A stretch of DNA of 62,293 nucleotides, counting the filler, from Hausera hauseri (Eukaryota), in assembly GCA_046269625.1 (NCBI GenBank). It is 11 parts of 11 records of this genome, joined end to end, with 100 filler letters (N's around TTAATTAATTAA, not from the genome) between each part and the next. Parts side by side here need not be neighbours in the genome. Positions count along the whole stretch, not along the records: positions 22,572 to 27,243 come from JBJURY010481132.1; 10 more parts are not named here. One strand, given 5' to 3'. The notes below the pieces were generated by a model, which was given only the letters and a program-made list of their open reading frames with translations, made no database searches and was not told the origin of the DNA. The position numbers were made by a program, and so were the translations under genes. Positions 5,016-62,293 of this stretch are shown one piece after another; the first letter of the stretch is position 1; every line of letters begins with the position of its first letter.

Positions 5016-5304
5016 GTTTAGATTATTAAATTAATAACGATAAATAAATGAATTTAAAAAAAAAAATTAAATTAAAATTTTATACTTTAGAGGGTAAAGT
5101 AATTTATTTAAGCTACTTTTAAAGTTAACTAAATCCAAATATAAAGTTTATTGGAAATTAATTATTATTAAAAAAAAAAAAAAAACTAGCTTGTTTGATA
5201 TTAATAACTATATACTTCCCAATCGGATACTTGATGAATGATATAGGCTGTCAACTCTGATGAAGAGCAATTAGTATCGTCTACACTCAATGAAAGCTCA
5301 AAAA

Positions 5305-9229: not shown

Positions 9230-12200
9230 AGCAGAAACCACCCATTACTGTCAAGTACGACCTAAAGAGATCGTACGTGGACATAAAAGCGAACATGTCG
9301 GCGACAAAAACAACGCACTTGAGACATGTTCCGCATAAAGTTCCCTACCAGTTGGAATCCGAAGTGGAGAAAATCAAACAACATCAACACCATTGCAAAG
9401 TGCAATATTGTGCACTTGCAGAATTTGGAAACGTGCAAGGTGACAGGAAACAGTGGTACTTGTCACATCGAGCCGAACAGCATTTTGACAATTTTATTGC
9501 CGATGTAGGCTAAAAGCTCGATAAAAAAATCGAAAACTACACCGAAAATAGTAGTGGATGGCGAATTATAAAAATAATCACTCTCGGCTTTATCGTAACA
9601 AAGTCGAGTGACATAATTTACCTGTCCGGTCGATCATTTATACCGTCACCTACACCCTGCAGCATTCACATGCAGTATTGAATGTAAAAAATACAGTATT
9701 CTGGCGGTAATAAAATATGACCAAGTGGACAGACATAGTGCAAATCGTCCAAATCAGTATCGGCAGTACTTTTCCGAATTGGATTTCGATGAGTACTGGA
9801 TGCCGATGAAACTAAACACCAATCCGGCTTTTGAACGGCGTAATCCAACACTGGCAATAAATGTGTTGCGGTAAAATACAATCCTAGAAATAACGGCAAA
9901 CGAAGAGATATATAAGAACCCGCATGTGGACATAATATATCGAAATCGGAACGCAACGGGACGCCAAATATATTTGTTACTGCTGGAACAAAAAGAAAAT
10001 TTCCATTACATGGTAGTGACCAATTTGGACCGACTGTTGAACATGGATCATCATCAGTTTGTCCAAAAACGTATACAATGTAAATGGTGTCCTGTATGTC
10101 TGCATGGTTTCAGGTTGAAAACAACATACGAGAAACATGTGGAGCTGTGCAAGCAGAATTTAACGGGAACAACCATGTACGTCATGTCACTCAAAAAGGA
10201 GCTCCGATTCAGTGATTGGTCGAAAACGGACAGTCCGGCATATGTGGTATATGCCGATATTGAGGCAATTCTACCACGGCATAACGAGTATGATCAAAAA
10301 CATGTTCCAATTACCGTTGGTATGTTGATGGTCCCAATAAAAACGGTCGGTCAGCTGCAGTATTACGCCTTTCACGGCTGGAACTGTGTACGTGATTTCC
10401 AGCAGCGTTTAGAAACTATAGTAGAAATGGAAATAGAGCCCTGGTATCGCAATAATTCCACTAAGCCATTTATGTGGGCAGATAAATATGAACCGCTGAT
10501 GTTCGCTGCGACTGATGAATGTTACCTGTGCCACAAAATATTATCGTTTGGCGCACTGGAACGGCTCGTACCGGATCACGATAATTTCACTGGTCAATAC
10601 TTGGGAGCAGCATGCAACGCATACAATTTAGCAAGACGGGTGCGGCCATTCCTGCCGGTGATATTTCATAACTTCAGGGGTTATAACTGTCACTAAATTC
10701 TAAAATGGACCATAAATGGATTTCCGCACTAAGTAATATCCATAATCCCAACAACGATGGAGAAGTACCTGTCCTTATCGGCAGGCATAAACCGGTTCCA
10801 GGTACGCTTCCTCGATTTATTGCAATTTCTCAATTAATCGCTGGCAAAGCTGGTAAATGCCTTGCCGGATGTGCCGATAATATTGACGCAGTTCCCCGCA
10901 CATATTGCACGCATTAAAGGTATACTCCCGTATGACTTTGCTGTGTCATATAAGCGACTCCGGACCACAGAAGAATTACTGCCGCGATGGATAGGTATCA
11001 CAGAACATGAATATCACAGAGCACAAGAATCTTGGACAGAGCTCGGTTGTAGAAACATATTTACTACATGCTTCATTATCTAAAGTTCGATGTGTACCTA
11101 TTAGCCGATGTATTTCAGACATTTCGGGCTAAAGCGTTGGAGAAAGATAGGTTGGAACCGCTCAACTTTTACTCAATACCGGGAATGAGTTGGGCATCGG
11201 AACTAATGTCACTTGATCGGGCCATTGACCTGCTACAAGACCCGAAATGTACCGACTGTTTGATGTCGGTATTCGTGGCGGTATAGCGTTTGTCAACAAG
11301 CATCACGTAACCAGTGATGATACAACGTCAAAGTTGTACATCGATATTAATAACCTGTACGGCTGGGCGCTTTCGCAACCCTTGCCGTACGGTTCATTTG
11401 AATGGATAATGGACAATCAAGAACTAGATACATTGCTGGTTAGTCTTTCAGAAGCAGCAGCAGCAGCCAACACGATAGAAAGCAGCTCAGTCGGCTACCT
11501 AATGGAAGTTGATCACGTAGTACCGGATGATATGCATGACGCTCTGGACGAATTACCCGTGGCACCAATCAGACAATGTCCACCCGACGGCTCGACAAAA
11601 GTAAAGAAGCTGCCCATGACACTTTAACCCAAATCGAATTTCGTGGTTCATTGGCGTCTGCTGCAGTTTTACATGCAGCTCGGCGTACGCGTCACACAGC
11701 TGCATCGTGCAATCCGCTTCAATAAGGCGCCGATATTCAAGGCGTACATTAATGGAAATTCCGGGAAACGAGCCGCAGCTTGTACAAAGTTCGCAAAGGA
11801 CTATTACAAACTCAAAAACAATTCACTGTACGGGAAAACAGTGGAAAATCTGAAGAAGCGGCTCAGTGTGCGCCTGTGCAACAACGAAAAACGACTGGTT
11901 ACATACACCAGCCAGGCTCAGTTCAAGCGGTCAATGCACATTGCCAATAGATTGGTCGCCGTGCTTCTAAACCGGGAAGAAGTCGTACTGGATCGGCCAA
12001 TCTACATCGGACAAGTAGTATTGGACCTGAGAAAGTTGCGAATGTACGAGCTTTAGTATCGCGACTTGGCACGTTACTGGCAAATGTTCGGCGGCGGCGG
12101 TGGCGGCTGAGATCAGTATCGTTGCCGGTGATACAGATAGCTTTTTCCTTGAGCTGAAAAACGTCAATCGAGACCAGTTGCTCCAACAAATGATGTCATA

Positions 12201-18530: not shown

Positions 18531-20740
18531 ATCATGTCATAGTCCTTAATGATTTATAGCCTGATACCGGTATAGCGCAGCATTGCTGCCCAGCTTATCC
18601 CTGGAGCCGTGAAGAAATGAACCGGATACAAAGTAAGTCTCTTCACTGTGACATCCCTGAAACTTTTAAATACATCTGTCAGCAACAGCGCATCGGTTTG
18701 GCGATATATATCAATATATTCCCATAATGTTTTGCATTGGAATGCCTGCCAGACGTTCTGAGCATTTTGGTAATCCTCATCACTGATATCACTATCCAAC
18801 AACTGGCTGTAAAAACCATCCTTGAACGGTAATGAGGATTCATCCAGTGTTTCCCATGATGTTATATAATCATAGGAAAACACTCCTTTCCTTTTATCTA
18901 GGTTAAAAATAACCGGAAAGAATCAGTTCGTTTCCTTGAGTTCTTCGGTAGGCAGATTCTTCACGAAACTGTCCAGTGAAGACAACATGAGTGGGAAACT
19001 CTTGATGAAGTAAAGTCGGATTTTACCAACATGCTTAGTGAAAGTTATATATTTCTCCTCACTGTTGTGGATCACTTCTATATTGCTATCAATGATGCCT
19101 AATTCTCGGACTATGAAATGGCTGCCATAGCCGCTGAGATTGTAAAATACTACAGGCACATATGTGCATGTTTTGCATTGTAGATTGCAGTTGTTACATG
19201 CTGTGCCCCGATATGCATTTGTAAAATGGCAGTGATCTTTAACTTTCTAATTTTTCTTGGTGAAGGACTTGTCGCACAAGTAGAATGATGCTGCCTTTCG
19301 CAATTCTTGTTCTTGTATCCAAGACATGCTCATGTCGTTCTTATGTTGTCGTCGCATCTTTTTACCTTATGAGCCATGTCTTCAAGTCTCTTCATGAAAT
19401 GTGCTGCTGCACCTGGACCCCTGAATTGATATGGTTTACTGTTCAATCCCTTGGCATACATACAATACGATGAGAGTTCGTGATATTGGTATGCCGTTGT
19501 ACTGCTATGTTGAGAACTGGGACTGCATGTATGAACTGGCCTGAGAATGGCCTCAAAGTGGCAACAGATTACAATTGGGACCTTGATCTTCTCAAATTCC
19601 TTAAATTCTATATAGTTCTTTTCGGGAAATTCTCACATTATACAATAATTGTTCTTGCAGTATATCTTGTGCTCTTTCAGCTTCTCTACAGCTAACTGAC
19701 CTCTGAAATACAATAAGCATCTTTTACATATTTCGATTCCGTGTTTATGCTTTGTTATTTGGGATATGACTAAACGCTCAAAATTCTTTATCCAAACATA
19801 ATATTTCTTATTGCAATTGTCTAGTAGAAGCAGATCCTTATGGTCTTCCAATTTAGCATTGCATATTTGCAAGGGGTAGAATTTGTCCTCCTCATCCAAT
19901 CCAAAGATAATGATGGACAAGTTGTTGATGCGGCTGAACTTCTTGATTGCATTTATAGATAGAGGGAATGTTATACGCCGAAAGTCGTAGTTGTGTTGGA
20001 GATCATTATATAGTCTAATTCAATCTGTTACATGTTTTTGATCCCGTACAAGTTTACATAAAATGGCATACATGAAGCACTTGTCGTTATCATTAAGGTC
20101 ATTGATACATGTCTTTGATTAATTGTCTATTCCGGAAGCTGTATATAAACTGCCTTGCATGGGGGAGTATCTGTGTATTTATAGAAACAGTCTCTTAATT
20201 GTTGTCAGACTCCATCTACTCTTCTTATCCAGGCTGTCATTGGCTTTACGGATCAGCTTCGTATGCTCTTTATGCAGCCAATCATATATATTTGTGTTTT
20301 CCAATATGGGTCTATTTTTGGTCTTGAAGGTCTTATTTGATTCTTCAGTATCGACGTTGATGTATGCGGCCTCAAGTTTCATATTAAACTTAAGGAACTT
20401 GAGCTCAGTCATATTGTCCTGGAAGATCCCCTCTGTTTCTTCCTTTGTATATTCCAGGAACTCCTTGATGGTTATTTGTCCAGCTGCATTAATGACATAT
20501 TTGCGGACTTTTTTCTTTAATGCAGCAGCATCAACTGGCCGCTATCTTTGGCTTTTTGTCGCAGCCGCTACGTTTGTTGAGCCTGAGGCATCTGATGGAC
20601 CTGATGGGCGTTTTAATCCTGAATATCGATGTACTTCTGCAGGCTGTCCTGCTGCGTCTGGCTGTACTGTGGACTGTAAAACTTGCCTAACCTCATTAAA
20701 TATGATCTTCTTGGACTTTGATGCCAAGTCAGTCAAATAA
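18531..20740 (-). pseudogene. polB: Decayed Polinton-type pPolB (N-terminal ~700 codons)
   Basis: AFKKKVRKY, LKFNMKLEAAY, NDNDKCFMYAIL, YYVWIKNFERLVISQ, DHCHFTNAYRGTACNNCN, PVVFYNLSGYG, KGVFSYDYITSW, DALLLTDVF, TAPGISWAAML. Confidence 0.92.
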
Positions 20741-22571: not shown

Positions 22572-25500
22572 AGCTTCTGCTAAAGTTTCTGCCTTGTGAT
22601 CCGTTAGCGCTACCAACTCGACGAAATGAGTTAGTCGATCAACACAAATCAAGATATATTTATTATTTTTGTGGGTCGTAGGTAGCGGTCCTACGATATC
22701 CATTAACATGGCTTGCATTGGTCTGTCTAGTACGTGATTGGTTTCAGTTCTGCCATGTAGTTTTTCGTCTTCTTCTGCTTGGTTGCACATACCTCACAAG
22801 CACTTACCCAATTCTTTATATCAATATAGATACTGGGCCAAAAGTATTTATTCAATGTTCTTTCCAATGTCCTCTTACATGACATGTGTCCTGCTAAATA
22901 TGAATCATGTTCTGCCATTAGAACTTCAGTTTGTAATCTCTGGAATGAGTATAACTTTTCTGCCCTTTCGTTCATAATACAAAATATCTTCGTGGCTTCT
23001 ATCGTTTAAGGCACAATAATTGCGGCCGTGCCTATGTAGGTGTTTCTTTAGCTGTCGTCCTTTGGTCATTGTGTTTTCCTTAGCAAATTCTATAATCTGC
23101 TGGATGACTTTATCTCCTTTCTGTTCGGCTGAAATTTGAATGGCTTTATCCAACGTTAGAACGCGTTGGAGATCTATTAATTCTTCAAGCTGGGCTTTCT
23201 TCATCACCGTAATTGCGCTCTTCTTAGTCTTCAGTCTCGATAGTGCTTCAGCATCTACATGTTTGTTTCCAGGCCTATATTGAAATTCAATATTATATCT
23301 AAAGATTTCTTCAATCCATCTGTTAAGTCAACATATCGGATTGCTTGCCCGTCTTTTTAAGGTTGTAACAGCTTTATGATCCGTAACGATTATGATTTTC
23401 TGTTTGTACACGTAAATAGTAAAATGTCGAAGTGCTTCTTTAGCGGCTAAAGCTTCCAATTCTGTAACAGAATAATTTTTCACAGCCTTTTTTAATAAAC
23501 GTCCTCCATGTGCGATTAGATGTTTTAATTCTTCATCTTCTCTTTTCTGAGCTAGTTCATATCCAATACCTTCTTTACTGGCGTCGGTCTTAATTATAAA
23601 TGGTAGATTGAAGTCTGGGTACTGTAAAACTGGTTCGCTAGTTAAAATCTTTTTCATTTCATTGAAAGCCTTCTGTTCGACATCTGTCCATTTCCATTTG
23701 ATTCCTTTTTTAAGGAGACGATACAAAGGCGCATTTATTATTGAGTTGTCGGCATACAGGTGGCATAATATACACATAAACCTAGCCAATGTCTTAACTC
23801 TTTCTGATTTTGCGGCTCCATGCAATTTGATATCTTACTTAACAACGATTTATATGGTTTTAATCCTCCTTCGCCAACTATATGGCCAAGGTAGGATACT
23901 GCATTTTGAGCCCATTTACATTTCTTCGGGTTTAATTTTAATTCTGCTTGCTATAATTGCATTAGCGTGTATTCAGTATCCCTTAAATGTTCTTCCTCTG
24001 TCTTCGACGCTATCATTACATCATCTAAATATTCAAAAGCGTGATCTTGTTCCATTAACATTTTGTTCATCATTCTTGTAAAAATAGCTAGTCCGATGGT
24101 AATTCCGAACGGCATAACATTAAATTCGTAAATACAATCATGCATTTTGAATGCTGTTTTATAGCGATCTTCGTCTTCAACTTCTATTTGCCAATATCCG
24201 GTAAACCGTTTTGCCCCTGACAGCCTATCAAGAGCTTCTTTTACTGATGGCAATAGAAAAGAATCCTTCATCATAAGATTGTTTAGTGCCCTATATCGAT
24301 GCAAAATCGATGTTTCCTAGTGTCCTTCTTCTGAACCATAAGAATTGGCGAGTACCAAGGTTTATATCTGGGCCTAATTATGTCCGCTTTAAGCATTCGT
24401 TCGACTTCCTTTGTTATCTCGGGTCTCAATGAATAAGGTGGAGGGTTTCATTTTGTCATCTTCTGATCTTCTAAATCTATCTCTTCGTTTGAACCGGGCT
24501 TCTTAAGCGGAATAGTCAGTTTTAAGGCCTTTGCTCTGCCGATATCCTCGTCATCCTTCGAAATAATCGTGTTAGAGCGACATAATAGTTCGTAGAATCA
24601 ACAATAGATTCAGGCGAAGACTTAGTTTCGACATGAGGTGAAAATTCAACATATTTTTAAGGCTTTTCTTCGATATTGATGGACGATACTTTATAGGTAT
24701 CTCCTAGAGTAGTGTAATCATGTAACCTGATTGGAGTCGGCCCATTATTCGCTATCCTGATTGTCACGCGATCCAAGTGTACTCTTGCCAATACATTACT
24801 AAGTGTTATATTCGAATTTAACGTTTTCCTTGGTTCAAAATATACTGGTTGATCATTATCTTGTTGTATTTGCGCGTAAATTATTATCTTTGTTCTTCGG
24901 GGAATGTTTTCATCGACTGGAATCCACCGTTCTCCAAATTTCCTACCTTTGGCGATTTTTATGCCTCTGTTTGTCCGAATTTCTATTAGCTTTCCCGCCT
25001 GTAAATCTATTGCTGCGATTGGTAGTCTTTTTAGTAGGTCGCAGCCTAGAACTACATCATCAGTTAATTGTTACATAACTGCAAATTCGTGCTGGAAAAA
25101 TTTCCGGGTTCCACAAGAACATCGGTTTCGACATTTGACCAAAAGCTCCTGTGCTACCGGGGTATTTCGTTGGCGGGTACAGTTGTACTCTCAATGTTTG
25201 GGGAATTGAGTCGTTTTTGATGTAAGACATCTCAGAACCTGTGTCGATTAGGGCATATACTCCCCAATCTTCAATAGTGATTTTGGCGAAGGGTCTTCTT
25301 TCTATTACCATTCCGAAACGGCTTGATGCAGCCTTTGGGCGCTTAATTGCCGATATTTTGTGCCCATTAATTCTGATTTCTGGAGAAGTTAGTATATTTC
25401 CCGATAGTTGCCTCAATTCTCCATTTGGATATAATTGATTATTTTCGATGTTAGATTCTTCTGCTTCATGAATACTGATTAATGGTTCTCGGTTGTTAGT

Positions 25501-25810
25501 GTGCGGTTCTATATTCCGAAAGGTTTGTAATTTTCGATTTCCCCACACAGGTGATTTGGTCTTTATATTTCGAGGTTCTCTGGGCAAGTATAGGATCCTA
25601 GGATCGTCCATAGGCTGCCGATAGCATATCTTTCGCGGGATCCAGTATTGCTTATTTCCTTCATAAGAGTCTTCGAGGCTAACTGTTCTCTTGTAGATTT
25701 CCTTTTGATATGAGCCCATTGATCTCTTATCACAGTCTTTGTAGACTGGAGCAGACGGAGGTAATATGGGAAACGGCGCCTTTATGACAAAATATGTCTT
25801 GTCTATCTAC
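22572..25810 (-). mobile_element. Decayed Ty3/Gypsy pol: protease, RT, RNase H, integrase
   Basis: ALIDTGSEMSY (protease), GYWQI..KTAF..FNVMPFG..YLDD (RT), FIIKTDAS..NYSVTELEALA..TDHKA (RNase H), HDSYLAGH..CEVC and MDIVGPLP (integrase). PR-RT-RH-IN order. Confidence 0.93.
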
Positions 25811-27200
25811 TTTTAAGGGAACTTCTCCCTTAGGCTCGTCACCATCTAAATTATTTCTGCGTGTGTTCAGTTTGGTGGGCTTCCGCTTATACAAAAACAT
25901 AGGCCTTCCTTTTCGTTTACGATTATGGTAGCCGACATGACGTTCTACGTCTGATTTCCCTCTACTTTCTTCATAAACCTTTAAAAACTTTCCGAAAGGT
26001 GTGACGATTGAGGTAGATATTTTATACGAGAATCCCGTCAATGTAAGCATTTCATATTCGTTTATTCCTAGTTGGGTGACCGCCTTAATTAGTTGTGTCA
26101 TAGAATATATCGCTAGAAATCCAGATGCGGATTGTCCAAAAATTAAAAATCTTCTCCAAATATTGTAGAGTATTTCCTTAGTTACTCGTTGGTAATGATT
26201 TACTCCGAGCAAGGTTTCCTATTTAGCTTCATATCGAGTATCGTCTAGTATTGAGGCCATGGCTGGATTCAATTCGTGCGTTTGGTGTCGTGAGAAAGCC
26301 AGGAATTGTCTAAAAGCTCCAATTTCCTTTGGTATATAAATTCCTTTTGATGAGATGTAATGAAATTTATCATCCATGATTCCTTTCACGTGATTAGTTC
26401 CCGTTAACTTAATTGGGGAGGTAGTAATACCTCCGTTTGGCAAACTTACCCCATCTGTTTCGCTACGTCTAAACATAGGTTCGCCTAAGCTTGCCTTACA
26501 ATCTTTAAGGATCGTTGGCTGAGTCGCGTTATCTAACAATACTTTAGTAAGTGGCATGGCTAAGCCAGGAATGTTTTGGTATATAACCGGAAGTTTTTGT
26601 ATACACCGCTTTAATTCGACATTGATCAATACATCCCTTTTTTCACATTCGTAAGTATATAAAACCTCACCGGTGACTCGAGCGAAAATTCCTTCTCCCA
26701 TACAAATTATCGGTGATGTTAATTCAGGATTAGCATAAATGACAGCTAATTTTGTTCTCCTAATTTCAATGTCTAGCTTGCAATTGTTCCTTATCATTTT
26801 ATGGTATAGTTCAGCTATTCCAAATTGCCCTTTGTAATAAAAATAATCGTCTCGGTTTTTCAAGTAAATTTCAATACGAATATCCTGTGTTTCAAATTGA
26901 TAAGTCTCTGCATTTATTTCCGTTTCTGCAACGAGAAATGTTTCATAATTAGAGGCAAACATCACAACCTCGCAACCTGAAATCATTTCCTTTTTAATAA
27001 ATTTCAGCCCATAGGTATTAGAAATCAGTATCGTGGGTGTAAAATGCTATGACACGTCTTCCCGCGTTCTTGAGTTACTGTCGAATTTATCCACGTACCG
27101 CTTCCCGGTGGATTCATTGAATTTCAGTTCCTTAATTTTGATAAAATTACAGTTTCTTTTAGAGGGAGGTTCTCATATTATAACAGAACTTCTAAAAGCA
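25805..27200 (-). pseudogene. Chuvirus/herpes-gB-like (class III) envelope glycoprotein, C-terminal half
   Basis: LYHKMIRNNC..LAVIYANP..GIFARVTGEVLYTYEC..CIQKLPVIY..PLTKVL, SKGIY..FRQFLAF and WRRFLIFGQSASGFLAI..LIK..GFSYKI follow the block order of chuvirus-like glycoprotein EVEs. ORFs 26219-26986 and 25730-26212 are in the same frame, separated by one TAG. Confidence 0.8.
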
Positions 27201-27343
27201 CACAAGTAGGTAGATGTGAGGACACCACGCCGAACCCCCCCCCNNNNNNNNNNNNNNNNNNNNNNNNNNNNNNNNNNNNNNNNNNNNTTAATTAATTAAN
27301 NNNNNNNNNNNNNNNNNNNNNNNNNNNNNNNNNNNNNNNNNNN

Positions 27344-29656
27344 TTCGTTCCTTTGCTTCTTCGTTCGTTCGTTCGTTTGTTCATTCTTTCGATCGTTCTT
27401 TCGTTGGTTTGTTCGTTCGTTCGTTCGTTCTTTCGTTCGTTCGTTTCTTCCTTCGTTCGTTCGTTCGTTCTTTCTTTCGATCGCTCGTTCTTTCGGCCAT
27501 TGTTTCTTTCCATCTTTCGTTCCTTTTATCGTTCCTTCGTTCGTTCGTTCGTTCTTTCTTTCGTTCGTTCGTTCATTACTTCGGTCGTTCTTTGTTACGT
27601 TCGTTCGTTCCTTCGCTTCTTCGTTCGTTCGTTCGTTTGTTCATTCTTTCGATCGTTCTTTTTTTCGTTCGTTCGTTCCTTCGCTTCTTCGTTCGTTCGT
27701 TCGTTTGTTCATTCTTTCGATCGTTCTTTTTATCGTTCGTTCGTTCCTTTGCTTCTTCGTTCGTTCGTTCGTTTGTTCATTCTTTCGATCGTTCTTTCGT
27801 TGGTTTGTTCGTTCGTTCGTTCGTTCTTTCGTTCGTTCGTTTCTTCCTTCGTTCGTTCGTTCGTTCTTTCTTTCGATCGCTCGTTCTTTCGGCCATTGTT
27901 TCTTTCCATCTTTCGTTCCTTTTATCGTTCCTTCGTTCGTTCGTTCGTTCTTTCTTTCGTTCGTTCGTTCATTACTTCGGTCGTTCTTTGTTACGTTCGT
28001 TCGTTCCTTCGCTTCTTCGTTCGTTCGTTCGTTTGTTCATTCTTTCGATCGTTCTTTTTTTCGTTCGTTCGTTCCTTCGCTTCTTCGTTCGTTCGTTCGT
28101 TTGTTCATTCTTTCGATCGTTCTTTTTATCGTTCGTTCGTTCCTTTGCTTCTTCGTTCGTTAGTTCGTTTGTTCATTCGTTCGATCGTTCTTTCGTTGGT
28201 TTGTTCGTTCGTTCGTTCGTTTTTTCGTTTTTTCCTTCGTTCTGTCGTTCGTTCTTTCGTTCGTTCTTTTTTTCTTTCGTTTGTTCGTTCGTTTGTTTAT
28301 TCGATCGTTCGTTCGTTCTTTCCGTCTTCCCTTCGTTCGTTCTTTCATTCGTTTATTCGTTCGTTCTTTCGATCGTTCCTTCGTTTTGTCTTTCGTTCGT
28401 TCTTTCGATCGTTCGTTCGTTCCTTCGCTTGTTCGTTCGTTCGTACGTTCGTTCCTTCGTTCGTTCGTTCCTTCGTTCGTTCGTTCGTTCGTTCGTTCGT
28501 TCGTTCTGTCGTTCGTTCCTTCGTTCCTTCATTCGTTCGTTCATTCTTTCGTTCATTCATTCGGTCCTTCACTCGTTCGTTCGTTCTTTAGTTCGTTCGT
28601 TCGTTCCTTCGCTTGTTCTTTCGATCGTTCTTTCGTTCGCTCATTTGTTCGTTTGTTCGTTCGTTCCTTTGTTCCTTCGTTCGTTCTTTCGTTCGGTATT
28701 TCGTTCCTTCGTTCGCTCGTTCGATCCTTCGTTCGTTCGTTCGTTCGTTCTTCATTTCGTTCGTTCCTTCGTTTTTTCGTTCGTTCCTTCGTTTTTCCTT
28801 TCCTTCTTTCTTTCTTTCGTTCGTTCTTTCTTTTGCTTGTTCATTCTTTCGTTCATTCGCTCCTTCGTTCTTTCGTTCCTTCGATTGTTCATTCGTTCGT
28901 TCGTTCGTTCGTTCGATCGTTCTTTCATACTTTCGTTCGCTCGATCGTTTCTTCGTTCGTTCGTTCGTTCTTTCGATCGTTCGATCGTTCCTTCCTTCGT
29001 CCGTTCCTTCGTTCGTTCGATCCTTCGTAATTTCGTTCATTCTTTTGTTCGTTCTTTCGTTCCTTCTTTCCTTCATTCGTTCGTTCGTTCAGCCGTAAGT
29101 TCGTTCGTTCTTTCTTTCGTTCGTTCGTTCTTTCGTTATTTGGTTCGTTCTTTCGTTCGTACTTTCGTTTGTTCGTTCGTTCCTTCGTCCGTTCGTTCCT
29201 TAGTTCATTCTTTCTTTCGTTCGTTCGTTGGTTCTTTCGTTCGTTCGTTCTTTCCTTCTTTCGTTCGTTCGTTCGTTCGTTCTTTCTTTCATTCGTTCGT
29301 TCGTTCTTTGTTTCGTTCTTTCGTTCCTTTGCTTCTTTGTTCGTTCGTTCGTTTGTTCATTCTTTCGATCGTTCTTTCGTTGGTTTGTTCGTTCGTTCGT
29401 TCGTCCTTTCGTTCTTTCCTTCGTTAGTTCGTTCGTTCGTTTGTTCTTTCCGTTTTCGTTCGTTCGTTCTTTCATTCTTTCATTCGTTCGTTCTTTCGTT
29501 CGTTCTTTCGTTCGTTTGTTCTTTCTTTCGTTCTTTCTTTCGTTCGTTCGTTCGATCCTTCGCTTGTTCGTTCGTTCTTACGTTCGTTTCTTCGTTCGAT
29601 CGTTCGTTCGTACGTTCGTTCCTTCGTTCTTTCGTTCGTTCGTTTCTTCCTTCGTT

Positions 29657-29687
<31 letters not shown>

Positions 29688-32591
29688 TTGTTCGTTCCTT
29701 CGTTCTGTCGTTCGTTGCTTCTTTCCTTCTTTCGTTTGGTCGTTCGTTCTTTCCTTCCTTCCTTCGTTCGTTCGTTCTTTCTTTCGTTCGCTCGTTCTTT
29801 CGGCCATTGTTTCTTTCCATCTTTTGTTCCTTTTATCGTTCCTTCGTTCGTTCGTTCGTTCTTTCTTTCGTTCGTTCGTTCATTACTTCGGTCGTTCTTT
29901 GTTACGTTCGTTCGTTCCTTCGCTTCTTCGTTCGTTCGTTCGTTTGTTCATTCTTTCGATCGTTCTTTTTTTCGTTCGTTCGTTCCTTCGCTTCTTCGTT
30001 CGTTCGTTCGTTTGTTCATTCTTTCGATCGTTCTTTTTATCGTTCGTTCGTTCCTTTGCTTCTTCGTTCGTTCGTTCGTTTGTTCATTCGTTCGATCGTT
30101 CTTTCGTTGGTTTGTTCGTTCGTTCGTTCGTTTTTTCGTTTTTTCCTTCATTCGTTCGTTCGTCCTTTCGTTCTTTCCGTTTACGTTCGTTCGACCTTTC
30201 ATTCTTTCATTCCTTCGTTCTGTCGTTCGTTCTTTCGTTCGTTCTTTCTTTCTTTCGTTCGTTCGTTCGTTCCTTCGCTTTTTCGTTCGTTCGTTCGTTT
30301 GTTCGTTCGTTCGTTCTTTCTTTTGTCCGTTCTTTCCTTCCTTCATTCGTTCTTTCGTTCGTTCCTTCGTTTGTTCGGTCGCTCGTTCTTTGGTTCTTTC
30401 GTTCGTTCGTTCTTTCCTTCTTTCGTTCGTTCGTTCGTTCGTTCGTTCGTTCGTTCATTCGTTCGTTCGTTCTTTCTTTCGCTCGTTCGTTCCTTCGCTT
30501 CGTTCGTTCGTTCGTTCGTTTGTTCGTTCGTTAGATTGTTCTTTCGTTCGTTCTTTCGTTCGCTCGTTCGTTCCTTCGTTCCTTCGCTCGCTCGTTCTTT
30601 CGGTATTTCTTTCGATCCTTCTTTCGTTCTTTCGTTCTTTCGTTCATTCGTTCGTTCGTTCTTTGTTTCGTTCTTTCGTTCCTTTGCTTCTTCGTTCGTT
30701 CGTTCGTTTGTTCATTCTTTCGATCGTTCTTTCGTTGGTTTGTTCGTTCGTTCGTTCGTTCTTTCGTTCGTTCGTTTCTTCCTTCGTTCGTTCGTTCGTT
30801 CTTTCTTTCGATCGCTCGTTCTTTCGGCCATTGTTTCTTTCCATCTTTCGTTCCTTTTATCGTTCCTTCGTTCGTTCGTTCGTTCTTTCTTTCGTTCGTT
30901 CGTTCATTACTTCGGTCGTTCTTTGTTACGTTCGTTCGTTCCTTCGCTTCTTCGTTCGTTCGTTCGTTTGTTCATTCTTTCGATCGTTCTTTTTTTCGTT
31001 CGTTCGTTCCTTCGCTTCTTCGTTCGTTCGTTCGTTTGTTCATTCTTTCGATCGTTCTTTTTATCGTTCGTTCGTTCCTTTGCTTCTTCGTTCGTTAGTT
31101 CGTTTGTTCATTCGTTCGATCGTTCTTTCGTTGGTTTGTTCGTTCGTTCGTTCGTTTTTTCGTTTTTTCCTTCGTTCTGTCGTTCGTTCTTTCGTTCGTT
31201 CTTTTTTTCTTTCGTTTGTTCGTTCGTTTGTTTATTCGATCGTTCGTTCGTTCTTTCCGTCTTCCCTTCGTTCGTTCTTTCATTCGTTTATTCGTTCGTT
31301 CTTTCGATCGTTCCTTCGTTTTGTCTTTCGTTCGTTCTTTCGATCGTTCGTTCGTTCCTTCGCTTGTTCGTTCGTTCGTACGTTCGTTCCTTCGTTCGTT
31401 CGTTCCTTCGTTCGTTCGTTCGTTCGTTCGTTCGTTCGTTCTGTCGTTCGTTCCTTCGTTCCTTCATTCGTTCGTTCATTCTTTCGTTCATTCATTCGGT
31501 CCTTCACTCGTTCGTTCGTTCTTTAGTTCGTTCGTTCGTTCCTTCGCTTGTTCTTTCGATCGTTCTTTCGTTCGCTCATTTGTTCGTTTGTTCGTTCGTT
31601 CCTTTGTTCCTTCGTTCGTTCTTTCGTTCGGTATTTCGTTCCTTCGTTCGCTCGTTCGATCCTTCGTTCGTTCGTTCGTTCGTTCTTCATTTCGTTCGTT
31701 CCTTCGTTTTTTCGTTCGTTCCTTCGTTTTTCCTTTCCTTCTTTCTTTCTTTCGTTCGTTCTTTCTTTTGCTTGTTCATTCTTTCGTTCATTCGCTCCTT
31801 CGTTCTTTCGTTCCTTCGATTGTTCATTCGTTCGTTCGTTCGTTCGTTCGATCGTTCTTTCATACTTTCGTTCGCTCGATCGTTTCTTCGTTCGTTCGTT
31901 CGTTCTTTCGATCGTTCGATCGTTCCTTCCTTCGTCCGTTCCTTCGTTCGTTCGATCCTTCGTAATTTCGTTCATTCTTTTGTTCGTTCTTTCGTTCCTT
32001 CTTTCCTTCATTCGTTCGTTCGTTCAGCCGTAAGTTCGTTCGTTCTTTCTTTCGTTCGTTCGTTCTTTCGTTATTTGGTTCGTTCTTTCGTTCGTACTTT
32101 CGTTTGTTCGTTCGTTCCTTCGTCCGTTCGTTCCTTAGTTCATTCTTTCTTTCGTTCGTTCGTTGGTTCTTTCGTTCGTTCGTTCTTTCCTTCTTTCGTT
32201 CGTTCGTTCGTTCGTTCTTTCTTTCATTCGTTCGTTCGTTCTTTGTTTCGTTCTTTCGTTCCTTTGCTTCTTTGTTCGTTCGTTCGTTTGTTCATTCTTT
32301 CGATCGTTCTTTCGTTGGTTTGTTCGTTCGTTCGTTCGTCCTTTCGTTCTTTCCTTCGTTAGTTCGTTCGTTCGTTTGTTCTTTCCGTTTTCGTTCGTTC
32401 GTTCTTTCATTCTTTCATTCGTTCGTTCTTTCGTTCGTTCTTTCGTTCGTTTGTTCTTTCTTTCGTTCTTTCTTTCGTTCGTTCGTTCGATCCTTCGCTT
32501 GTTCGTTCGTTCTTACGTTCGTTTCTTCGTTCGATCGTTCGTTCGTACGTTCGTTCCTTCGTTCTTTCGTTCGTTCGTTTCTTCCTTCGTT

Positions 32592-32622
<31 letters not shown>

Positions 32623-33024
32623 TTGTTCGTTCCTTCGTTCTGTCGTTCGTTGCTTCTTTCCTTCTTTCGTTTGGTCGTTCGTTCTTTCCTTCCTTCCTTC
32701 GTTCGTTCGTTCTTTCTTTCGTTCGCTCGTTCTTTCGGCCATTGTTTCTTTCCATCTTTTGTTCCTTTTATCGTTCCTTCGTTCGTTCGTTCGTTCTTTC
32801 TTTCGTTCGTTCGTTCATTACTTCGGTCGTTCTTTGTTACGTTCGTTCGTTCCTTCGCTTCTTCGTTCGTTCGTTCGTTTGTTCATTCTTTCGATCGTTC
32901 TTTTTTTCGTTCGTTCGTTCCTTCGCTTCTTCGTTCGTTCGTTCGTTTGTTCATTCTTTCGATCGTTCTTTTTATCGTTCGTTCGTTCCTTTGCTTCTTC
33001 GTTCGTTCGTTCGTTTGTTCATTC
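27344..33024. repeat. Degenerate (TTCG)n/(CGAA)n satellite with ~60-, 396- and 2935-bp higher-order periods
   Basis: Marker cggccattg at 27494 and 27890 (offset 396). Identical translated ORFs are offset by 2935 (28160/31095, 29200/32135). Confidence 0.97.
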
Positions 33025-33820: not shown

Positions 33821-36800
33821 TCAATGGAATGATAATTGGTTCAACAAATCACTACTGAACGATAGAACATTTGCAACACTATCGTGACGAATTTCTTCTT
33901 CAGTCAGTTCTACCGAATGCAATTTCGTAAGTTTATCCATGTCCTCCTTAAAGTCAAATTGAAACGAAACAAAATTGAAAGAAATTCGAACCGAGTTTAA
34001 CTTATCTAACTTCATCAATTCTGACCAAATTAATTCAATCAAAAACCCATATTCGACGTAAATGTTAGACGGCATCGGCTCGTACAAAACCTCCCTAAAC
34101 GGAGCATAGTATTCGTTGTGATGTCCACGTCAAATTACTTTAGTTTCCCCAGTTGCGATTCATGGTGAAATGCTAACAACTGTTCCACAAGACCTTCCCA
34201 AACGATAACACCGATCTTTGACAACGGAATGTTTCTGACAACACTTATTTTGTCGAATAGCATTAAGAGATGACTACATTTGAAATGACTATTACTCTGG
34301 TTTTTGTCAACGTAAGTTAGAACAGCATTGCGCGCAAAGTTGCGAATATCAATGGATTCATCGAAACAACAAACAGAAAGCAAAGAGAAAAGCGATTGTG
34401 GAGAACGACGGATTACATAACCGGAATGAGGACTAACCAATAACGCTTCCAGACATTTAATAGATGTCATTCTAACATGTTCGGTGACAGACGCATCAAG
34501 GCCAGAAATCAGCACGTCGATATAACATTGGAAACTGGTATCAGCTAACGGTAAAAGATCGCGTAAGAACATCCACGTGACTATTTGCAGAAACGAAAGT
34601 CGAACAACTTCAGGTGAAAATTCGTCGAGTTTTCTTAGCTGTTGTTGGAACAGATGACAACTTTGAGTGATTGATATAGATGGGAAAAATTGACAATGGA
34701 GAACAGACGCACCGAATTGGAGAACATATGGGGTATAATTAGAATCATATTCGCCCAATGATCGCTGGATGGTCGACAATAATGTTTCACAAATGTGTAG
34801 CTTTAACGAAGGAATGGAGAATGATTCGGTGTAGCTGGAACAAAGATGTTGCAGAACACAGAAATGATCACGATGCAGAAGAAACATGAGTACATCGTCA
34901 GAAATAGACTGTTGAAATTTAAGCAACACCGAAAGAATGGCGGACAATGCATTTAGTTTACCAATGTCTGCATTGCCTTTTAAACAGTTTCCGATGGAGA
35001 ACAGCAGTTGAGTTAAGGACAAAATGTGGTCATCATTCAGAAAGACAGGAGTTATGGACAAAAGGCTGAGAGCAGATTCAATAAGTAACCAACATGCTTT
35101 ACTTGACATGTAATGGCAATAATCCAGAATGTTCTGAGTAAGATTAGTTTGGTGAATCTCATTCAGAGTCAGCTTACGCAATACTAGTCTAAATAGATAC
35201 AATTCGCCGTGTTGTCGGTTACATGGAATAGACGCAATATAATGTACGGAAATGGTATCTCCGTGAACAATTTGCCAAAGTAACATGGAATTCCCAACAA
35301 CTGTCTCAAAGGCAACAACACCAACCGGAAGGCATTGGACGATACATTTGCAGACCAATCGACGAACGGTAGAAACTTGATTGCCGAGAAGTGGCCATAG
35401 AGCATCTAATAAGTGCGACATTCGGAAACCGGAAGGTAAATGTTTGTCATGGCTATAGTAGAGACAGGACATGAGAGTAAGTGTTGGAACTAGAACATGG
35501 TTCTGCATGAATAAATTTCCAGTGACACTTTGTCTGATGATACTCAAAATCGGATGCCATAATTGTGGATACAGGGAAAATAATTCGGAAAAAGATGAAT
35601 TCGTGTGAAGACCCTGTGTAACACATGCGATGCGAGACAAAATCGTTGTGAACAGTTGCAGAGCAGCATTCCGAATACCCCAATTTGTCGAGGAGAATTT
35701 GGATAAGGCAGTGAGAGTAATGTCACCGTAATATGGAAACAGCATATTGACCAATGACGGTTCTTTGCACATATTTCGAATGAGATTCAGATGGTGAATA
35801 ACCGGTGGATCACAACCGAGTTGCCAGCTATTCTCATCCATATTCTGTGACAAATCCAACAACATTTTCAGACACCTATCAACTAAATTAGCAGCTCCTA
35901 TCGAAATCGAACTGGACGTCAAAGCTGCCATCAAAACCAATGGTAAACCGGCACTACGTCTTGTTACGGAATAATTATCCCTTGCCGAGATTTCAATACA
36001 ATCGTTCAATGCAACTTCTGTCGGGGTAAGCCATTCGCCATGTTTTTCGTTCGCTTGTGCCAATTGCAAATACTTTTGCAAGCACAATCCGACGCTTTCT
36101 ATCGTACCCCGGTGACGACTTCCACCCATTATCTTCATCAGAAGGAGACCGATTTTACGAAATTCATTTTGCTGTCCGTGTCGAACAGACGCGTCGCACC
36201 AGCTGATTAAAATTGTTGCGATTAACTTTAACGTTTGCCAGGCCCAAGATAAGATGTGTTGAAATTGATGCATAACGGAATCATCGGCCTTTTTCGTTAC
36301 AGCATCACCATCGCATGATATTAATGAAGTTATGGTAATTCCGATTTTTTGGAAAGATGCTAGTCCATTATCCTCACAACCCATGATTTTCATGACCAGC
36401 TTAACTATGTTGAATGCAGCATCCGGGATTCTATTCGACAAAATATCAGTGTTGCCGTTTATTTGTTGCAAGATTATATTAAGAGCCGCCAACAAGCCAT
36501 GGCCAGGACGTTTGTAGACAATTTTCAGAACGTATTCAGGTTTCAATTGTGACAGTTCTTCAATGAACGACATGAGATATTCCATGACAGTTGAAGTTTG
36601 ATTAATCAAATAATTGCTAAACGACCGAGAGTAATGATTTGAACTCGTGGAAAAGTTGTTACCAATGATGAAGGAAAGATAAAATATAAGAGCCAGCAGA
36701 GTTCATATTCGGTTGATAACTATTGCTAAGACGTTCGGCTTCTGAAAACAGATAATCAACATCGAGGCTCGAATATGAAACCGAATGATTTCGAACGATC

Positions 36801-42548: not shown

Positions 42549-44050
42549 TCTGAGGTCCTTCAGCGACTCTAAAAGTCTCATTCTGCACATGAGAGCTGCA
42601 CATTCTGTTCTTTTCTGCTGTTCAACGCTCGATGGTTCACCTTCCGTGTTTACGACTATTAGACCTCCTCCGGAACCGCCTCCTAATGAAAAGAGTTCAA
42701 GACCAAATTTGGCGGTTCTTCATGGCAACGGGAGCAATACATCAGTAGGATATTCACGCGATGAGAAGGGGCGCTTTCTGTGCCCTGTTTGCGCAACAAC
42801 TTACTCAACAAAAGGTTGGGTGACTCGCCACATGAAAGCTTCTCACACTACAGAATATGAGGCGAGGCTTAGAGAACAAGCCAGGCTAGACAACAACACT
42901 AATAAGAGAGGCAGGGAGACTAATACAGCTACAGTATCCGATTGCGAGAGCAATCAACCGTCCCGTCATCCCTGCCGGTCCTTCACTCAAGTTGTCACGC
43001 CCGCTCAACCATCCACTCCTGCGTTGTTGAGTGGATCTCAATCTAACGTGAATGTACCTGTTTTGGCTAGGCCAGTTGCAAGAGAAACTCAGAGGCCTTT
43101 TCCTTGCCCTCAGTGCGAGAAGGGTTACACACACAAATCGTCATTAAATAGACATATGAAAGCTACCCACGCATCTGAGACAACACATAGTAATACCACA
43201 AGGCCACGCTCTAGTTCTTGCTCTGTAGACCCAGACGCCCCTCAACCTCCTAACAAAATGATTTGCATTGATGTCACTCCTATTTCACAAGCCTCCGCCG
43301 AGAACGCAACTTCATTTCGCTGCACCGTTTGTGATAATAGGTATACGGCATGGTCTAGTCTTGTAAGACACATGAGATCGAAACATCCTGGAGTTACTAT
43401 TATTGATCAACGTCCAGGGAAAAATACTACTGTACCAACTCCTGTGTCGATGCTTGTCTGTGAGACCTGTCAAAGGACCTTCACATATAAACAGCACCTC
43501 ACCAGACATAAGATGAGCTGCCACGCTCAAATACGACCCTCAACTGTCACTGCAAATCATGACTGTGAAGAAACCGCAGAACATCTGTTATTATGCCCAG
43601 GACTTCTGGAACGTCGAATAGAATATAACATAGAAGGCGTACAAATATCTGAAGTAGCACATACCCATAGACTTGCGAAATTTCTTTTAACAATTTTTTC
43701 TTAGTTTTATATTTTACTTGGTTTATTTAGTTCATAATTTTGCTTATTCCTACAAGACCGGCGTGCTGTTAGTAGATTACAGATTGGAGCCAAGAGCCCA
43801 TTTCTCCATGTCAGTCCCATTATCTTCATGCTGTGTTCCCGGAGTGTTTTTCTCTTTTTTGTTTTTTAGTTTATTGTTTTCAGTGCTACGTCGAATTTGA
43901 CAGGGGCTTTGTTTTTACATAAGATGGGTGGAGATGAGTGTGAAACTCCACTGCTAACTGAGGTTGCTTTGGACGTCGCCTTGGTGTAATAGGGCAAATG
44001 TCATGTGAATCATAACTGCGCGTGCTAGAAAAAGCACGAAAAAAAAAAAA
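42549..44050 (+). mobile_element. 3' end of an ingi/L1Tc-like non-LTR retroposon (C2H2 fingers, 3' UTR, poly(A))
   Basis: Four complete plus one partial C2H2 fingers and terminal CEETAEHLLLCP, homologous to the C-terminus of the 1811-aa ORF. Poly(A) at 44039-44050. Confidence 0.9.
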
Positions 44051-47000
44051 ATGATGCCCCCGGGAATGCCGGCCACCTTGTCGTGGTCCCGGGGCTCAGT
44101 ACCCTCACAAAGGGGAAGCCAAGTGCCTGCACACTTCCATTGGTGGAAGATGTGTTGGCAGGCTGGAGCGGTAACTAGCGCAGGAACTCAGTTTTTATGG
44201 CGGAGACAGCTAGCGCCGAGTCAGGAGTTGAGAGAGTTCCGATGCACGTGTGAGCGTGCTATTATATTAATAATTATTTTTAGTCTATTACAATGCGGCG
44301 ATATTGAGGAAAACCCGGGTCCATCTCTACGAGGAGCACAGTGGAATGCTGCAGGTTTGACGAGAGCCAAGCGTTTATCCTTGGCTAGGTTCTTGAACCA
44401 GCACGAAATCTCATTCTGCTTACTCTGTGAAACGAAAATGACCGTGAACGAAGTAAACTGTTTTGCGCTTGATGGATATCAACATGTTGGCATGGCAAGA
44501 AATTGTCAGGGAGGTGGAGTCTCGATACTTGTTCGTGACGACATTCGTGTGTTAACTGGTTCAGCTGTGATACAGGCACACGAGTACGTTAATGCAACTC
44601 TTTATATAGGTGACTTGCCCCTCTCAATTACATCTGCTTACTTTGCCAAAAGAAACTATGTAAACGAAGTCCGACTAAATGACCTCATTAACTCTGGTCC
44701 TCATATTATTGGTGCTGACTGCAACGTTCACCATCCACTGTGGGACACCAAAGCTCTCCCAGATGCGGGAGGCGAGATCCTAGTTGATTGGTGTTGTAGT
44801 AACCAGTATATGATTGCGAATGATGGCTCAGGTACGCGAAGAAACATTGTTACCGGGGCTTGGTCCACACCAGACATCACCATGGGTAAAGAGTGCGAGA
44901 TCTCAAACTGGCGATCGATTTTTAGCGCAGACAGTGACCACAACTTCATCGTTTTTGATTCAATATTCGGTCACGATGATCTACCAATTCCTCATTACAA
45001 ACCTGGAAAGCCGCTTTTTTCATGGAGCAAGGCAGATTGGAACTGCTTTAGCCGTAGTTTAGCGGGAGAAATGAAGAACATTGCGAGGAAGAAAGAAAAA
45101 TTACAACCACTCATCAAGTCGGTTAAAGAAAGGGAGAAAAAACCGAAATCACATCCTGTTACAGGTGGAAAGAAGGCCAGACGATCCATTGTTGCAGATA
45201 ACATTAAGACGTTAACAAAGAAAAAGATTGTCTTGCCTAAGCGTCCTTTGAGATTTCGGTTGGGGAAACATCACCAACTCAGTACTGATCACAGACCTCA
45301 GAAAGGTAAACATGTTTCCAAAATGTCCCTAAACCGCATAATGAGGGGTCATACAGTGTCCTCCATTGCTAAGGCCTTTAGTACTGCCGTTAATAAAGCT
45401 ATGGTGAAAGCTGTTCCAAGAGGTGCTAGAACAGCCTCCATATTTTGGTCAAAGGAACTAAAAGATCTTGACCTACAGATTGAGCGTGAAGTGAGCATCA
45501 AAAGACGACAGACATTAATCACTTCAAGACGACAACTTTTAAATGAAGTAGTGACAAGTAGATGGAAGAAGAATTGCTCGTCAATGACATCAAATAATAG
45601 AATGAGTTGGCGCACGATTGCTGCTATTAAAAAACCGCGTACTCTTAAGACGCCAGCAGTTGTGGTCAACAATGTAACTTTAAGTCATCGACAGCATGCT
45701 ACGCGCCTTCTGCGTTTGTTTCAGCGCAAGTCTACTAGAGCGTCACATGCCCCGGTACTACGCCGACAACCTGGTGGCTCGGACTTTGTCCCAATTATTA
45801 TGACAGAACTAAGAGAAGCATTGTCCGAATTGACAACTGGCACGGCCCCTGGTCCTGACGGAGTTCATCCTGAGAGTTTGAAGGCTCTGAATTCTTTTAG
45901 TTTAAAACTGCTCCTTAAGATTTATAACAAGAGTCTGCGGAGCGGTGTTGTTCCCCAACAATGGAAAGAGGGAGTTATTATTCCATTACTGAAGCCAGGC
46001 TTGCCGGCAACGGAGTTAACCTCCTTCAGACCAATAACCCTCACAAGCAACATCTGTAAAGTCATGGAACGGATAATTGTTGCGCGGCTTAGAGAACATA
46101 TTGAACCGAAATTAAGTCATGCACAATCGGGCTTTCGCCCTGGATGTTCTACAGCGGATCAGATGGCACATTTGCAATTTCTTTTGTTGAGGCGACAAGC
46201 GGCTGAGAGAACTGGCGCGGTCTTCATCGACTACGCTCGAGCCTTTGACTCAGTGGATTTTAGTAAAATTATTCAGGAACTCCAATACTTTAATGTCCCC
46301 TTGTACCTGATTCGTTGGGTAGGGGATTTTCTGAGTAATAGGATTACTAGGGTTCGTGTCAAGTCAAAGTTGTCACCGGCAGCCACATTCACATGTGGTG
46401 TGCCACAAGGGTCGGTCTTGGGTCCCTTTCTTTTTATAGTAGTTATTGACTCGCTTAGCAGGCGCTTGAACACTGTTAATGGACTGGATCATGGACTCTT
46501 TGCAGATGATCTTACGATACTATGTCGTAACACGTCCAGAGACTGTATTCAAGATATACTACAACAGGGCCTGCAAGTCATTGAAGATTGGTCCCGAGAG
46601 TACTTTATGGAAGTCAATCCTGCGAAGACGAAATATACGTTATTTAATAGTAAGAGAGCAGATCCTATGCATCTGACGTATGCAGGACATACGATTATGG
46701 AAGATAGGCAACCCAAGTTGCTCGGATTAACTGTTCAGATATATGGCGGCGCTAGTAAGCATGTGGATAACATGGCTGCCATTTGCCACAAACAGTTGCA
46801 AAAATTAGTTGCGATATCCGGGCGGACATGGGGACCAAAGCGTGATGTCTTACGTACGTTCTATATTGCTCTCATTCGCAGTCGACTTCTGTATGGCGTG
46901 GAAGCGTGGTGGCCCCAGATATCAAAAACGGCAGCAAACAAGTTGGAAGTAATACAAGGAAAAGCTGCTAGATTAATAGCAGGTATCCCGGGCCCTACAG

Positions 47001-57737: not shown

Positions 57738-58855
57738 TCACCCCCCAAAAAATATGGTTTCTGGTTTCTTTATTTTTACATGATTTAGCTGAAACTTTTC
57801 AGAAGGGTGGAAATGCCTAAGTCTAGTCGCGTGTACAAATTCTGTACTAGATTTGCTAAGTGCATTAGGTCTATTAATTTCAAAGAGTACATCTGAACAT
57901 TTCTGTAGTATTTCGTACGGACCATTATAAGCAGGGGTTAGCTTTCTTGTATGGGGGTAAATAAATTCCTCATACATTACTAAATCACCTACTTTAAAAT
58001 CTGCTTCTTGAAATTTTTTATCATATCTTATTTTGTTGATTTTGTAATACTGTTCAGTTCTTTCTTTTGCAATTTTTCGGGCTTCATGTAATGGTGGATA
58101 AATTTGGTTTCCTGTAATTGTGACTTCGTATGGTAATGTTCCGAACATTAAATAATTTGGAGGGAATTTTGTGATGTTGTGTGGTGTATTATTGTACTCA
58201 AGTGTGACTTGTTCCAACAATTTTGTCCAAGGAACTTTATTAGGGGAGCTGCTAACTTTACATTTTAATCGTGTAATCAGGGTCTGATTAACGCGTTCCA
58301 CTTTACCGTTTGTTTGTGGCCTATGGGAAGAAGTTAACTTTTGTGTGATGTTATTGTGGCGGAGGAAGTGTTTAAACTTAGGAGAAGTAAAGGCAGCGTT
58401 TCGGTCACTTAGGATTGCTTGTGGAATTTGACTTTGGAATATTTGTTTTAAACAATTGATGTAGGTTTCTGTTGTTGCGTTTTTTGAAGGAAAAGTCCAT
58501 ACATATCTTGTTGCATGATCTACCACAATGTGCAAAAATTTCTTTGTAGAGTTATAATAACTAAGTCCTCCTACTGTATCAATTGACAACAATTCATATG
58601 GGTTTTCACAGAGAGGAAGGGATTGTAAGAGTCCATACTTTCTCTGATGTGATTTTTTGTTGAATTGGCAATTTTCACAGTGTCTAACATAGTTTCGAAT
58701 ATCTTTAATAATATTAGTCCAGAAATATTGCGGTGATATAATTCTAAGCATAGTACTTACTCCTGGGTGTCCAAATTTTTCATGTGCATTTTCTATAATT
58801 TTACTCTTAATGCTCTAGGGACTATAATTTAAAATAATCCTTGTCTTTTTACAAC
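57738..58855 (-). pseudogene. Ty3/Gypsy integrase, separated from Pol by two stops and a frameshift at 58790-58858
   Basis: AHEKFGHPG, CENCQ, SIDTVG, ILSDRN, PQTNGKVERVN, YNGPY. Ends in TTTTTTGGGGGG (PPT-like). Confidence 0.9.
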
Positions 58856-62023: not shown

Positions 62024-62293
62024 ACGGCATTTTCATCTTTGAACACTCCACACCCGAGGTCAAGGACGGGACAAGTCTCCTCTTTCGATGAACTCGGCAG
62101 AAGTTTCTCCTCTCTCCTATTACGTAAGACCCATCGGCGCGGGCGAAGGGCGAAAAAGTGCTCTCCTCTCTCGGAAGGAAAAGACTGGGAGTGGCTTCAG
62201 AGCAAATTTTGAGGAATTTTTATCCAATCCTACAATTTAGGTTAAATTTTAAGCTTTGTGACAGGTAGGATTATCCTGCTGACTAAATTAATG

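Follow-up and report, generated by a model that had tools for sequence, protein, structure and literature searches.

A decayed Ty3/Gypsy copy from Hausera hauseri with a glycoprotein B-type env gene ahead of pol, and intact relatives that read Env and Pol in one frame

Background

Ty3/Gypsy retroelements that carry a viral fusion glycoprotein ahead of pol have recently been described in animals. According to the text of Chary and Hayashi (eLife 2026, PMC13524379), elements with the order GAG-ENV-POL and only a glycoprotein B (gB)-type ENV occur in several clades in Nematoda, Bryozoa and Platyhelminthes; the flipped ENV/POL order of nematode elements is credited there to Sacco et al. 2022 (metavirus), and the entry mechanism of gB-carrying elements is stated to be unexplained. 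The current work concerns contig JBJURY010481132.1 of Hausera hauseri (assembly GCA_046269625.1), a 4,672-bp sequence at positions 22572-27243 of the analysed window, which is a stretch of 62,293 nucleotides (nt). Very probably, the contig is what remains of one member of a many-copy Ty3/Gypsy family, dead and truncated, in which a gB-type env precedes pol. In its intact relatives, Env and Pol (in several also Gag) occupy one frame and form a predicted membrane-spanning polyprotein, in which the enzymes would remain on the tail of the fusogen until the protease likely frees them.

The gene order itself is already known; since it has been published, the copy studied here adds one more decayed example, and its relatives supply the most promising new leads. 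It resembles the elements of PMC13524379, as described in the text of that paper, in its Ty3/Gypsy pol and in the gB-type env ahead of pol, but is dead and truncated. An initial annotation, made from the sequence, had proposed a new type of lineage; this proposal falls, as the text of PMC13524379 already reports GAG-ENV-POL elements with gB-type ENV from three phyla. Going by word searches, the single open reading frame (ORF), its processing and late domains are not treated in the text of PMC13524379 or of its preprint; figures and supplementary files 2-6 of PMC13524379 may state ORF continuity. No claim is made that the late-domain-like motif of the Env tail described below is unpublished. 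The nematode elements of Sacco and colleagues reportedly have a continuous gag-env-pro-pol ORF and are said to be restricted to nematodes. A literature search for papers quoting the ORF structure (gag-env-pro-pol) of the Sacco 2022 elements found none. Interest now centres on the processing and packaging of a membrane-crossing Gag-Env-Pol protein, for which the relatives offer two starting points. One is a late-domain-like motif conserved where the Env tail meets the protease; the other is a predicted second surface protein behind the integrase.

Results and discussion

A gB-type env gene ahead of a Gypsy-type pol

The window is made up of 11 short contigs with N spacers between them that contain TTAATTAATTAA, and neighbouring contigs have no physical linkage. 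The element under study is one entire contig, bounded by such spacers. Pfam and profile searches found on its minus strand a chuvirus/gB-type env followed by protease, reverse transcriptase (RT), RNase H and integrase (Table 1). These matches and the motif positions bear out the order first annotated (glycoprotein, transmembrane region, RKRKGR, linker, DTG, RT, RNase H, integrase). The Pol order protease-RT-RNase H-integrase is that of Metaviridae, and RT and RNase H are of Gypsy type (RVT_1, RT_RNaseH and RT_RNaseH_2; the tree had no named reference set). ENV lies upstream of POL on the same strand and within 2 kb, as in the GAG-ENV-POL errantiviruses with gB-type ENV. Judged by its sequence, the contig is a decayed, truncated copy of a single Ty3/Gypsy element. 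It ends within env on one side and within the integrase on the other; gag and the long terminal repeats (LTRs) are off the contig. Because the whole contig lies between N spacers, the absence of gag and LTR upstream of env is uninformative.

The envelope assignment rests on profile and fold comparison. The Monjiviricetes_fusion family (PF24664) matched 27046-25733 over profile positions 264-607 of 653 (E 5.7e-32, with the in-frame TAG read as X). An AlphaFold model of Env, built from a 101-row alignment, reached a mean predicted local distance difference test score (pLDDT) of 81.6 and a predicted template modelling score of 0.48. The best Foldseek matches of this model were glycoproteins of chu-like viruses (E 4e-14 to 1e-9), and against PDB all 40 of the 40 rows shown were herpesvirus gB, with E from 1.6e-4 (about 2e-4) and TM-scores of about 0.3 for what is a partial monomer. 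The modelled Env is a class III-type fusogen because these fold matches are chuvirus G and herpesvirus gB, and the outcome agrees with the class III fusion protein that had been expected of a fold search. Its herpes simplex virus/gB type is also that of the ENV in the elements of PMC13524379. Chuvirus (Monjiviricetes) G and herpesvirus gB, however, are stand-alone type I proteins, whereas the Env tail here runs into the protease. Other searches were less productive: the sequence search of PDB gave no real match, word-based protein searches with Env returned 0 of 2306 and 0 of 2085 candidates, leaving HMMER as the only search to reach relatives, a viral contig set contained no relative, and an atlas feature search with a piece of Env yielded unrelated matches only, all below 0.9.

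The transmembrane region noted at first is present as a predicted helix, but it is weakly hydrophobic in this copy (best 19-residue mean 1.19, against 1.7-2.5 in relatives). A W..F..FG motif at the helix was also found in 13 of 18 relatives examined.

The Anakin elements (Dezordi et al. 2020, PMC7642597) likewise represent capture of this glycoprotein family by an LTR element, but their Pol is of BEL/Pao type and the one described here of Gypsy type. Membership of the present copy in that group was rejected, as none of the families matched by its Pol pieces is BEL-specific and the matches are to Gypsy-type families.

No repeat or gag was found between the glycoprotein and the protease, in line with the first reading of this interval, which had also extended the absence to the uninformative upstream side. 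Comparison of the contig with the window by blastn gave no internal repeat and no LTR-like repeat at the junction, and the linker has neither a Pfam match nor a CCHC knuckle, hence no sign of gag. This bears on the ENV-GAG-POL order of oribatid mites, published with a short GAG in PMC13524379, under which the linker would be a short decayed gag. The linker does have 187 codons in the Pol frame and contains PSAP, but the six mite elements listed there have F-type ENV, and in the relatives of the present element Gag signs precede Env; the proposal is hardly credible. Membership among the mite elements was accordingly rejected, Env being of gB type and the linker lacking any Pfam or CCHC sign of gag.

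Relatives with Env and Pol in one protein

An HMMER search with Env among 1.84 billion representatives returned 306 proteins at E<=0.001 and 10 at E<=1e-30. In eight of these 10 best relatives a Pfam protease follows Env within a single protein, a ninth shows only a DTG motif, and the last ends after the membrane helix; the fusion of Env to Pol suspected in the decayed copy is therefore present in intact relatives. RT and RNase H stand downstream of Env in one protein in P0001, P0004, P0008, P0018 and P0020 and also in the cluster members P0151 and P0154 (seven relatives). P0001, P0004, P0151 and P0154 are colinear with the contig across env, (protease), RT, RNase H and integrase. Of the 15 listed relatives longer than 950 aa, a CCHC knuckle, a sign of Gag, precedes Env in five, whereas RT precedes Env in none; P0010 also has a weak Retrotrans_gag match. 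Signs of the gag initially inferred upstream of env are thus found in relatives (that of the present element being off the contig), and no relative appeared with the glycoprotein downstream of integrase.

Three comparisons place the Hausera copy among these proteins. The top eight of 29 rows ranked by RT and RNase H score all come from the env-pol set, a 30-row RT/RNase H tree of the kind initially called for groups the copy with that set at 89/90, and in an Env tree of 45 rows (the relatives being the first 44 long matches) it joins all 13 protease-bearing rows with a Shimodaira-Hasegawa-like approximate likelihood ratio of 81. Env and RT point to the same env-pol relatives, so the idea of one env-before-pol Ty3/Gypsy element with a chuvirus/gB-like glycoprotein is upheld; on these comparisons, Env and this Pol share ancestry.

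Further copies were sought in sequencing runs. One run contained the stretch (share 0.49), and there was no RNA run among those listed; as this run is possibly the window's own sample, evidence from it is not independent. On the stretch lay 10,401 contigs of the run, most of them less than 95% alike, with 30 of 30 bins covered. The element is a many-copy family. At 27202, 40 run contigs continue differently, and none of the 15 joints shown, out of 112, falls within 25400-25900, the interval in which an LTR, target-site duplication or recombination junction would have indicated two juxtaposed elements.

It is very improbable, on this evidence, that two unrelated neighbours are combined here, namely an ordinary env-less Gypsy pol and, beside it, either an inserted glycoprotein of chuvirus origin or the env end of another element. 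Independent agreement of Env and RT on the same relatives argues against such a combination, as do a junction free of LTR-like repeat and gag, the lack of any of the 15 joints shown in that interval, and the heavy cover of both env and pol by family contigs, although the linker is poorly conserved among copies, the RNase H search yielded env-less Pols only and stand-alone glycoproteins of the PF24664 type are common.

Some relatives have features of their own. P0001, a gag-env-pol protein of 2627 aa, is labelled hypothetical in its database record and assigned to a Flavobacteriaceae metagenome-assembled genome; the record is most likely mis-binned animal DNA. In P0002, P0003, P0004, P0009, P0010 and P0151, two to seven protease-like DTG/DSG domains per ORF were found between Env and RT and also behind the integrase, and P0151 (4844 aa) has ankyrin and C2H2 matches besides.

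The frame change between env and protease

The copy is dead: over its whole length the frame changes seven times, and at least seven stops lie in frame. The rest of the element is as decayed as had been noted. One TAG (26221-26219) and one frame change (within 25733-25806) do separate glycoprotein and protease, but env contains two more stops, at 27175 and 27049. Counted from the frame change, the linker to the protease has 187 codons and not the roughly 150 first given; counted from the basic tail, it has about 225. The coding sequence of that tail is the sole purine run of 11 or more nt near the junction (25914). One 350-nt run contig (25576-25925) crosses the frame change with zero differences, so the frame change is not an assembly slip.

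A short motif helps to place this lesion. A hydrophobic-YP motif was found in eight of 11 fused relatives (one sequence per cluster), 33-92 residues ahead of the protease Asp (a mean of 0.79 in shuffles, none of 3000 reaching 8). Stand-alone Env tails also have it, 29 of the 69 studied, and there it marks the tail end, at 5-76 residues from the C-terminus (in shuffles a mean of 4.4 and a maximum of 12); these tails come from 76 matches of 600-900 aa after seven without a helix were dropped. In the Hausera copy, LYPNGEL is read in the protease frame, 62 residues ahead of the Asp, and PSAP lies upstream of it. Because the motif stands in the protease frame, the frame change falls within the Env tail and not where env meets pol. 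This favours an ORF that was once continuous and has decayed, and the frame change is most likely one of the seven decay lesions of the copy. PTAP/PPxY, found in two of 11 fused relatives, is not clearly enriched there (155 of 3000 shuffles reach 2). In the stand-alone chuvirus-type Env tails (P0021-P0150), PTAP/PSAP/PPxY was found in 17 of 69 (shuffle mean 2.5), and by these shuffles such tails are enriched in late-domain-like motifs.

Alternatively, the same gag-env-pol element may have a genuine frame change, with env ending at 25732 and Pol made either through a programmed +1 shift or from a message of its own, so that Pol would be scarce relative to Env. The two open frames overlap cleanly over 74 nt and a double stop follows, which would suit such an arrangement, as would the lack of any listed frame-changing indel at the overlap among other copies and an Env tail longer than in most relatives (10 of 11). 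It is nevertheless unlikely: the motif that ends Env tails stands in the protease frame, nine of the 10 closest relatives read through from Env to protease, the copy has six other frame changes, the overlap has no XXXYYYZ heptamer, and the indel table is incomplete.

Several observations weigh against the reading of the contig as one env-before-pol element from a lineage with Env and Pol in one frame. Both tree supports are below the strong threshold of the tool, and the Hausera copy is a long branch. RNase H taken by itself does not tell the groups apart (127 bits for the best non-env row, against 125), and the search with RNase H only returned 20 proteins, all with Gypsy-type Pol domain sets and none with Env. 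Env is only about 30% identical to its relatives, and frame rules may therefore differ in this family. Coverage is lowest in the linker (summed depth 116 at 25536-25691). The indel table gives no difference for this part that would change the frame, but most of the other frame changes are missing from that table as well. The distance from helix to protease is 304 codons, compared with 131-224 in 10 of 11 relatives. Finally, the choice of the hydrophobic-YP motif was post hoc and the rows compared are related to one another; the shuffle counts therefore exaggerate its support.

A predicted membrane-spanning polyprotein

Because intact relatives read Env and the enzymes as one protein, the Pol enzymes are likely made tethered to the membrane. 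The relatives have a hydrophobic signal-like stretch ahead of Env and one helix after it. By the rules of insertion into the endoplasmic reticulum (ER), Gag would be cytosolic, the ectodomain translocated, and the tail cytosolic and anchored by the helix. Gag would be made in the cytosol; the internal signal sequence before Env would route the ectodomain into the ER, where signal peptidase would cut; and the membrane helix would bring the chain back to the cytosol, leaving the tail, protease, RT, RNase H and integrase tethered at a putative budding site. PSAP and YPxnL are retroviral late-domain forms that bind TSG101 and ALIX. For this reason the Env tail, with its PSAP and YPxnL-like motifs, may drive budding by recruiting the endosomal sorting complexes required for transport. 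The protease would dimerise on clustered Env (trimers) and free the enzymes. Under the predicted topology, Pol would thus be packaged through its Env tether and released by the protease; a spliced gag-pol message might provide an alternative route for Pol.

A further region was observed in relatives only, as the Hausera contig ends in the integrase. In the five of five long ORFs that extend past the integrase (P0001, P0004, P0020, P0151 and P0154), the C-terminal 375-490 aa comprise a signal-like stretch, a domain of 215-330 aa and a further hydrophobic helix, and are predicted to form a second surface protein. Four of the five share the motif C..L.P.T.[YH], whose core occurs in 11-49 of 5000 shuffles each; leave-one-out hidden Markov models gave E 0.001-0.12. 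The motif recalls fibronectin type III. A single-sequence fold of this domain from P0001 reached pLDDT 33.

Tentatively, and with more doubt than confidence, a single multi-pass polyprotein of flavivirus style might supply the whole particle. It would comprise Gag, a class III fusogen with a late-domain tail that tethers Pol, and, behind the integrase, a second surface protein of type I as the receptor-binding partner on which gB-type fusogens normally depend. If true, this would answer how gB-carrying retroelements enter cells and would provide a route of Pol packaging without a Gag-Pol frameshift.

Features of the contig and of the rest of the window

Table 1. Features of the Ty3/Gypsy copy, in window positions
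Feature	Position	Strand	Remarks
Contig terminus	27203..27243		Final 41 nt; apparently not common to other family copies (element cut or interrupted); 40 contigs loose-ended at 27202; N spacer from 27244
Env ectodomain, C-terminal two thirds, chuvirus/gB-type	26222..27202	-	Stops 27175, 27049; PF24664 profile 264-498, E 4.7e-18 for 26222-27046; relatives align from 27160-27220
TAG, membrane-proximal region and predicted membrane helix	26060..26221	-	TAG 26221-26219 in frame; WRRFLIFG starts 26158
Env cytoplasmic tail, first part	25733..26059	-	RKRKGR 25921-25904; env frame closes 25732
Overlap of env and protease frames, 74 nt	25733..25806	-	Frame change; protease frame opens 25806
Linker, as second part of Env tail	25246..25806	-	PSAP 25758, LYPNGEL 25434; no Pfam match, no CCHC knuckle
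Aspartic protease	25000..25300	-	DTG 25245-25237; disrupted by one frame change and one stop; RVP match weak, E 0.0054, below Pfam cut-off; aligns to P0004 protease
Reverse transcriptase (YLDD), broken	23765..24597	-	RVT_1 E 9.5e-15; 38-46% identity to RT of env-pol relatives
Connection/RNase H	23235..23738	-	RT_RNaseH_2 E 2.3e-31, RT_RNaseH E 9.4e-24
Integrase zinc-binding domain and start of core	22572..22966	-	Integrase_H2C2 E 2.6e-15, weak rve E 2.1e-4; cut by contig end

A second Gypsy element, apparently without env, lies at 57738-62032 on the minus strand and served as control; its gag stop is followed directly by pol in frame, and gag-pol read-through is possible. The plus strand at 44009-49486 contains an intact long interspersed nuclear element (LINE) ORF of 1825 aa with a 2A-like GDIEENPGP, endonuclease, RT, RNase H and many C2H2 fingers, which we take to be ingi/L1Tc-like. 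Its contig has a higher GC content (0.43-0.47) and possibly comes from a second organism.

An intron-free THADA/Trm732 ORF of 855 codons (34135-36702, minus strand) could represent a retrocopy or else a single long exon; as a host marker it resolves to the level of Eukaryota. Positions 27344-33024 are a degenerate AACG-type satellite with higher-order repeats, in which identical translations recur 2,935 bp apart. Finally, a 1338-aa ORF at 1014-5030 (minus strand) combines an endonuclease VII match with DNA-polymerase-B-like motifs and has decayed relatives at 9875-12056 and 18554-20541; it is presumably Polinton/adintovirus-like.

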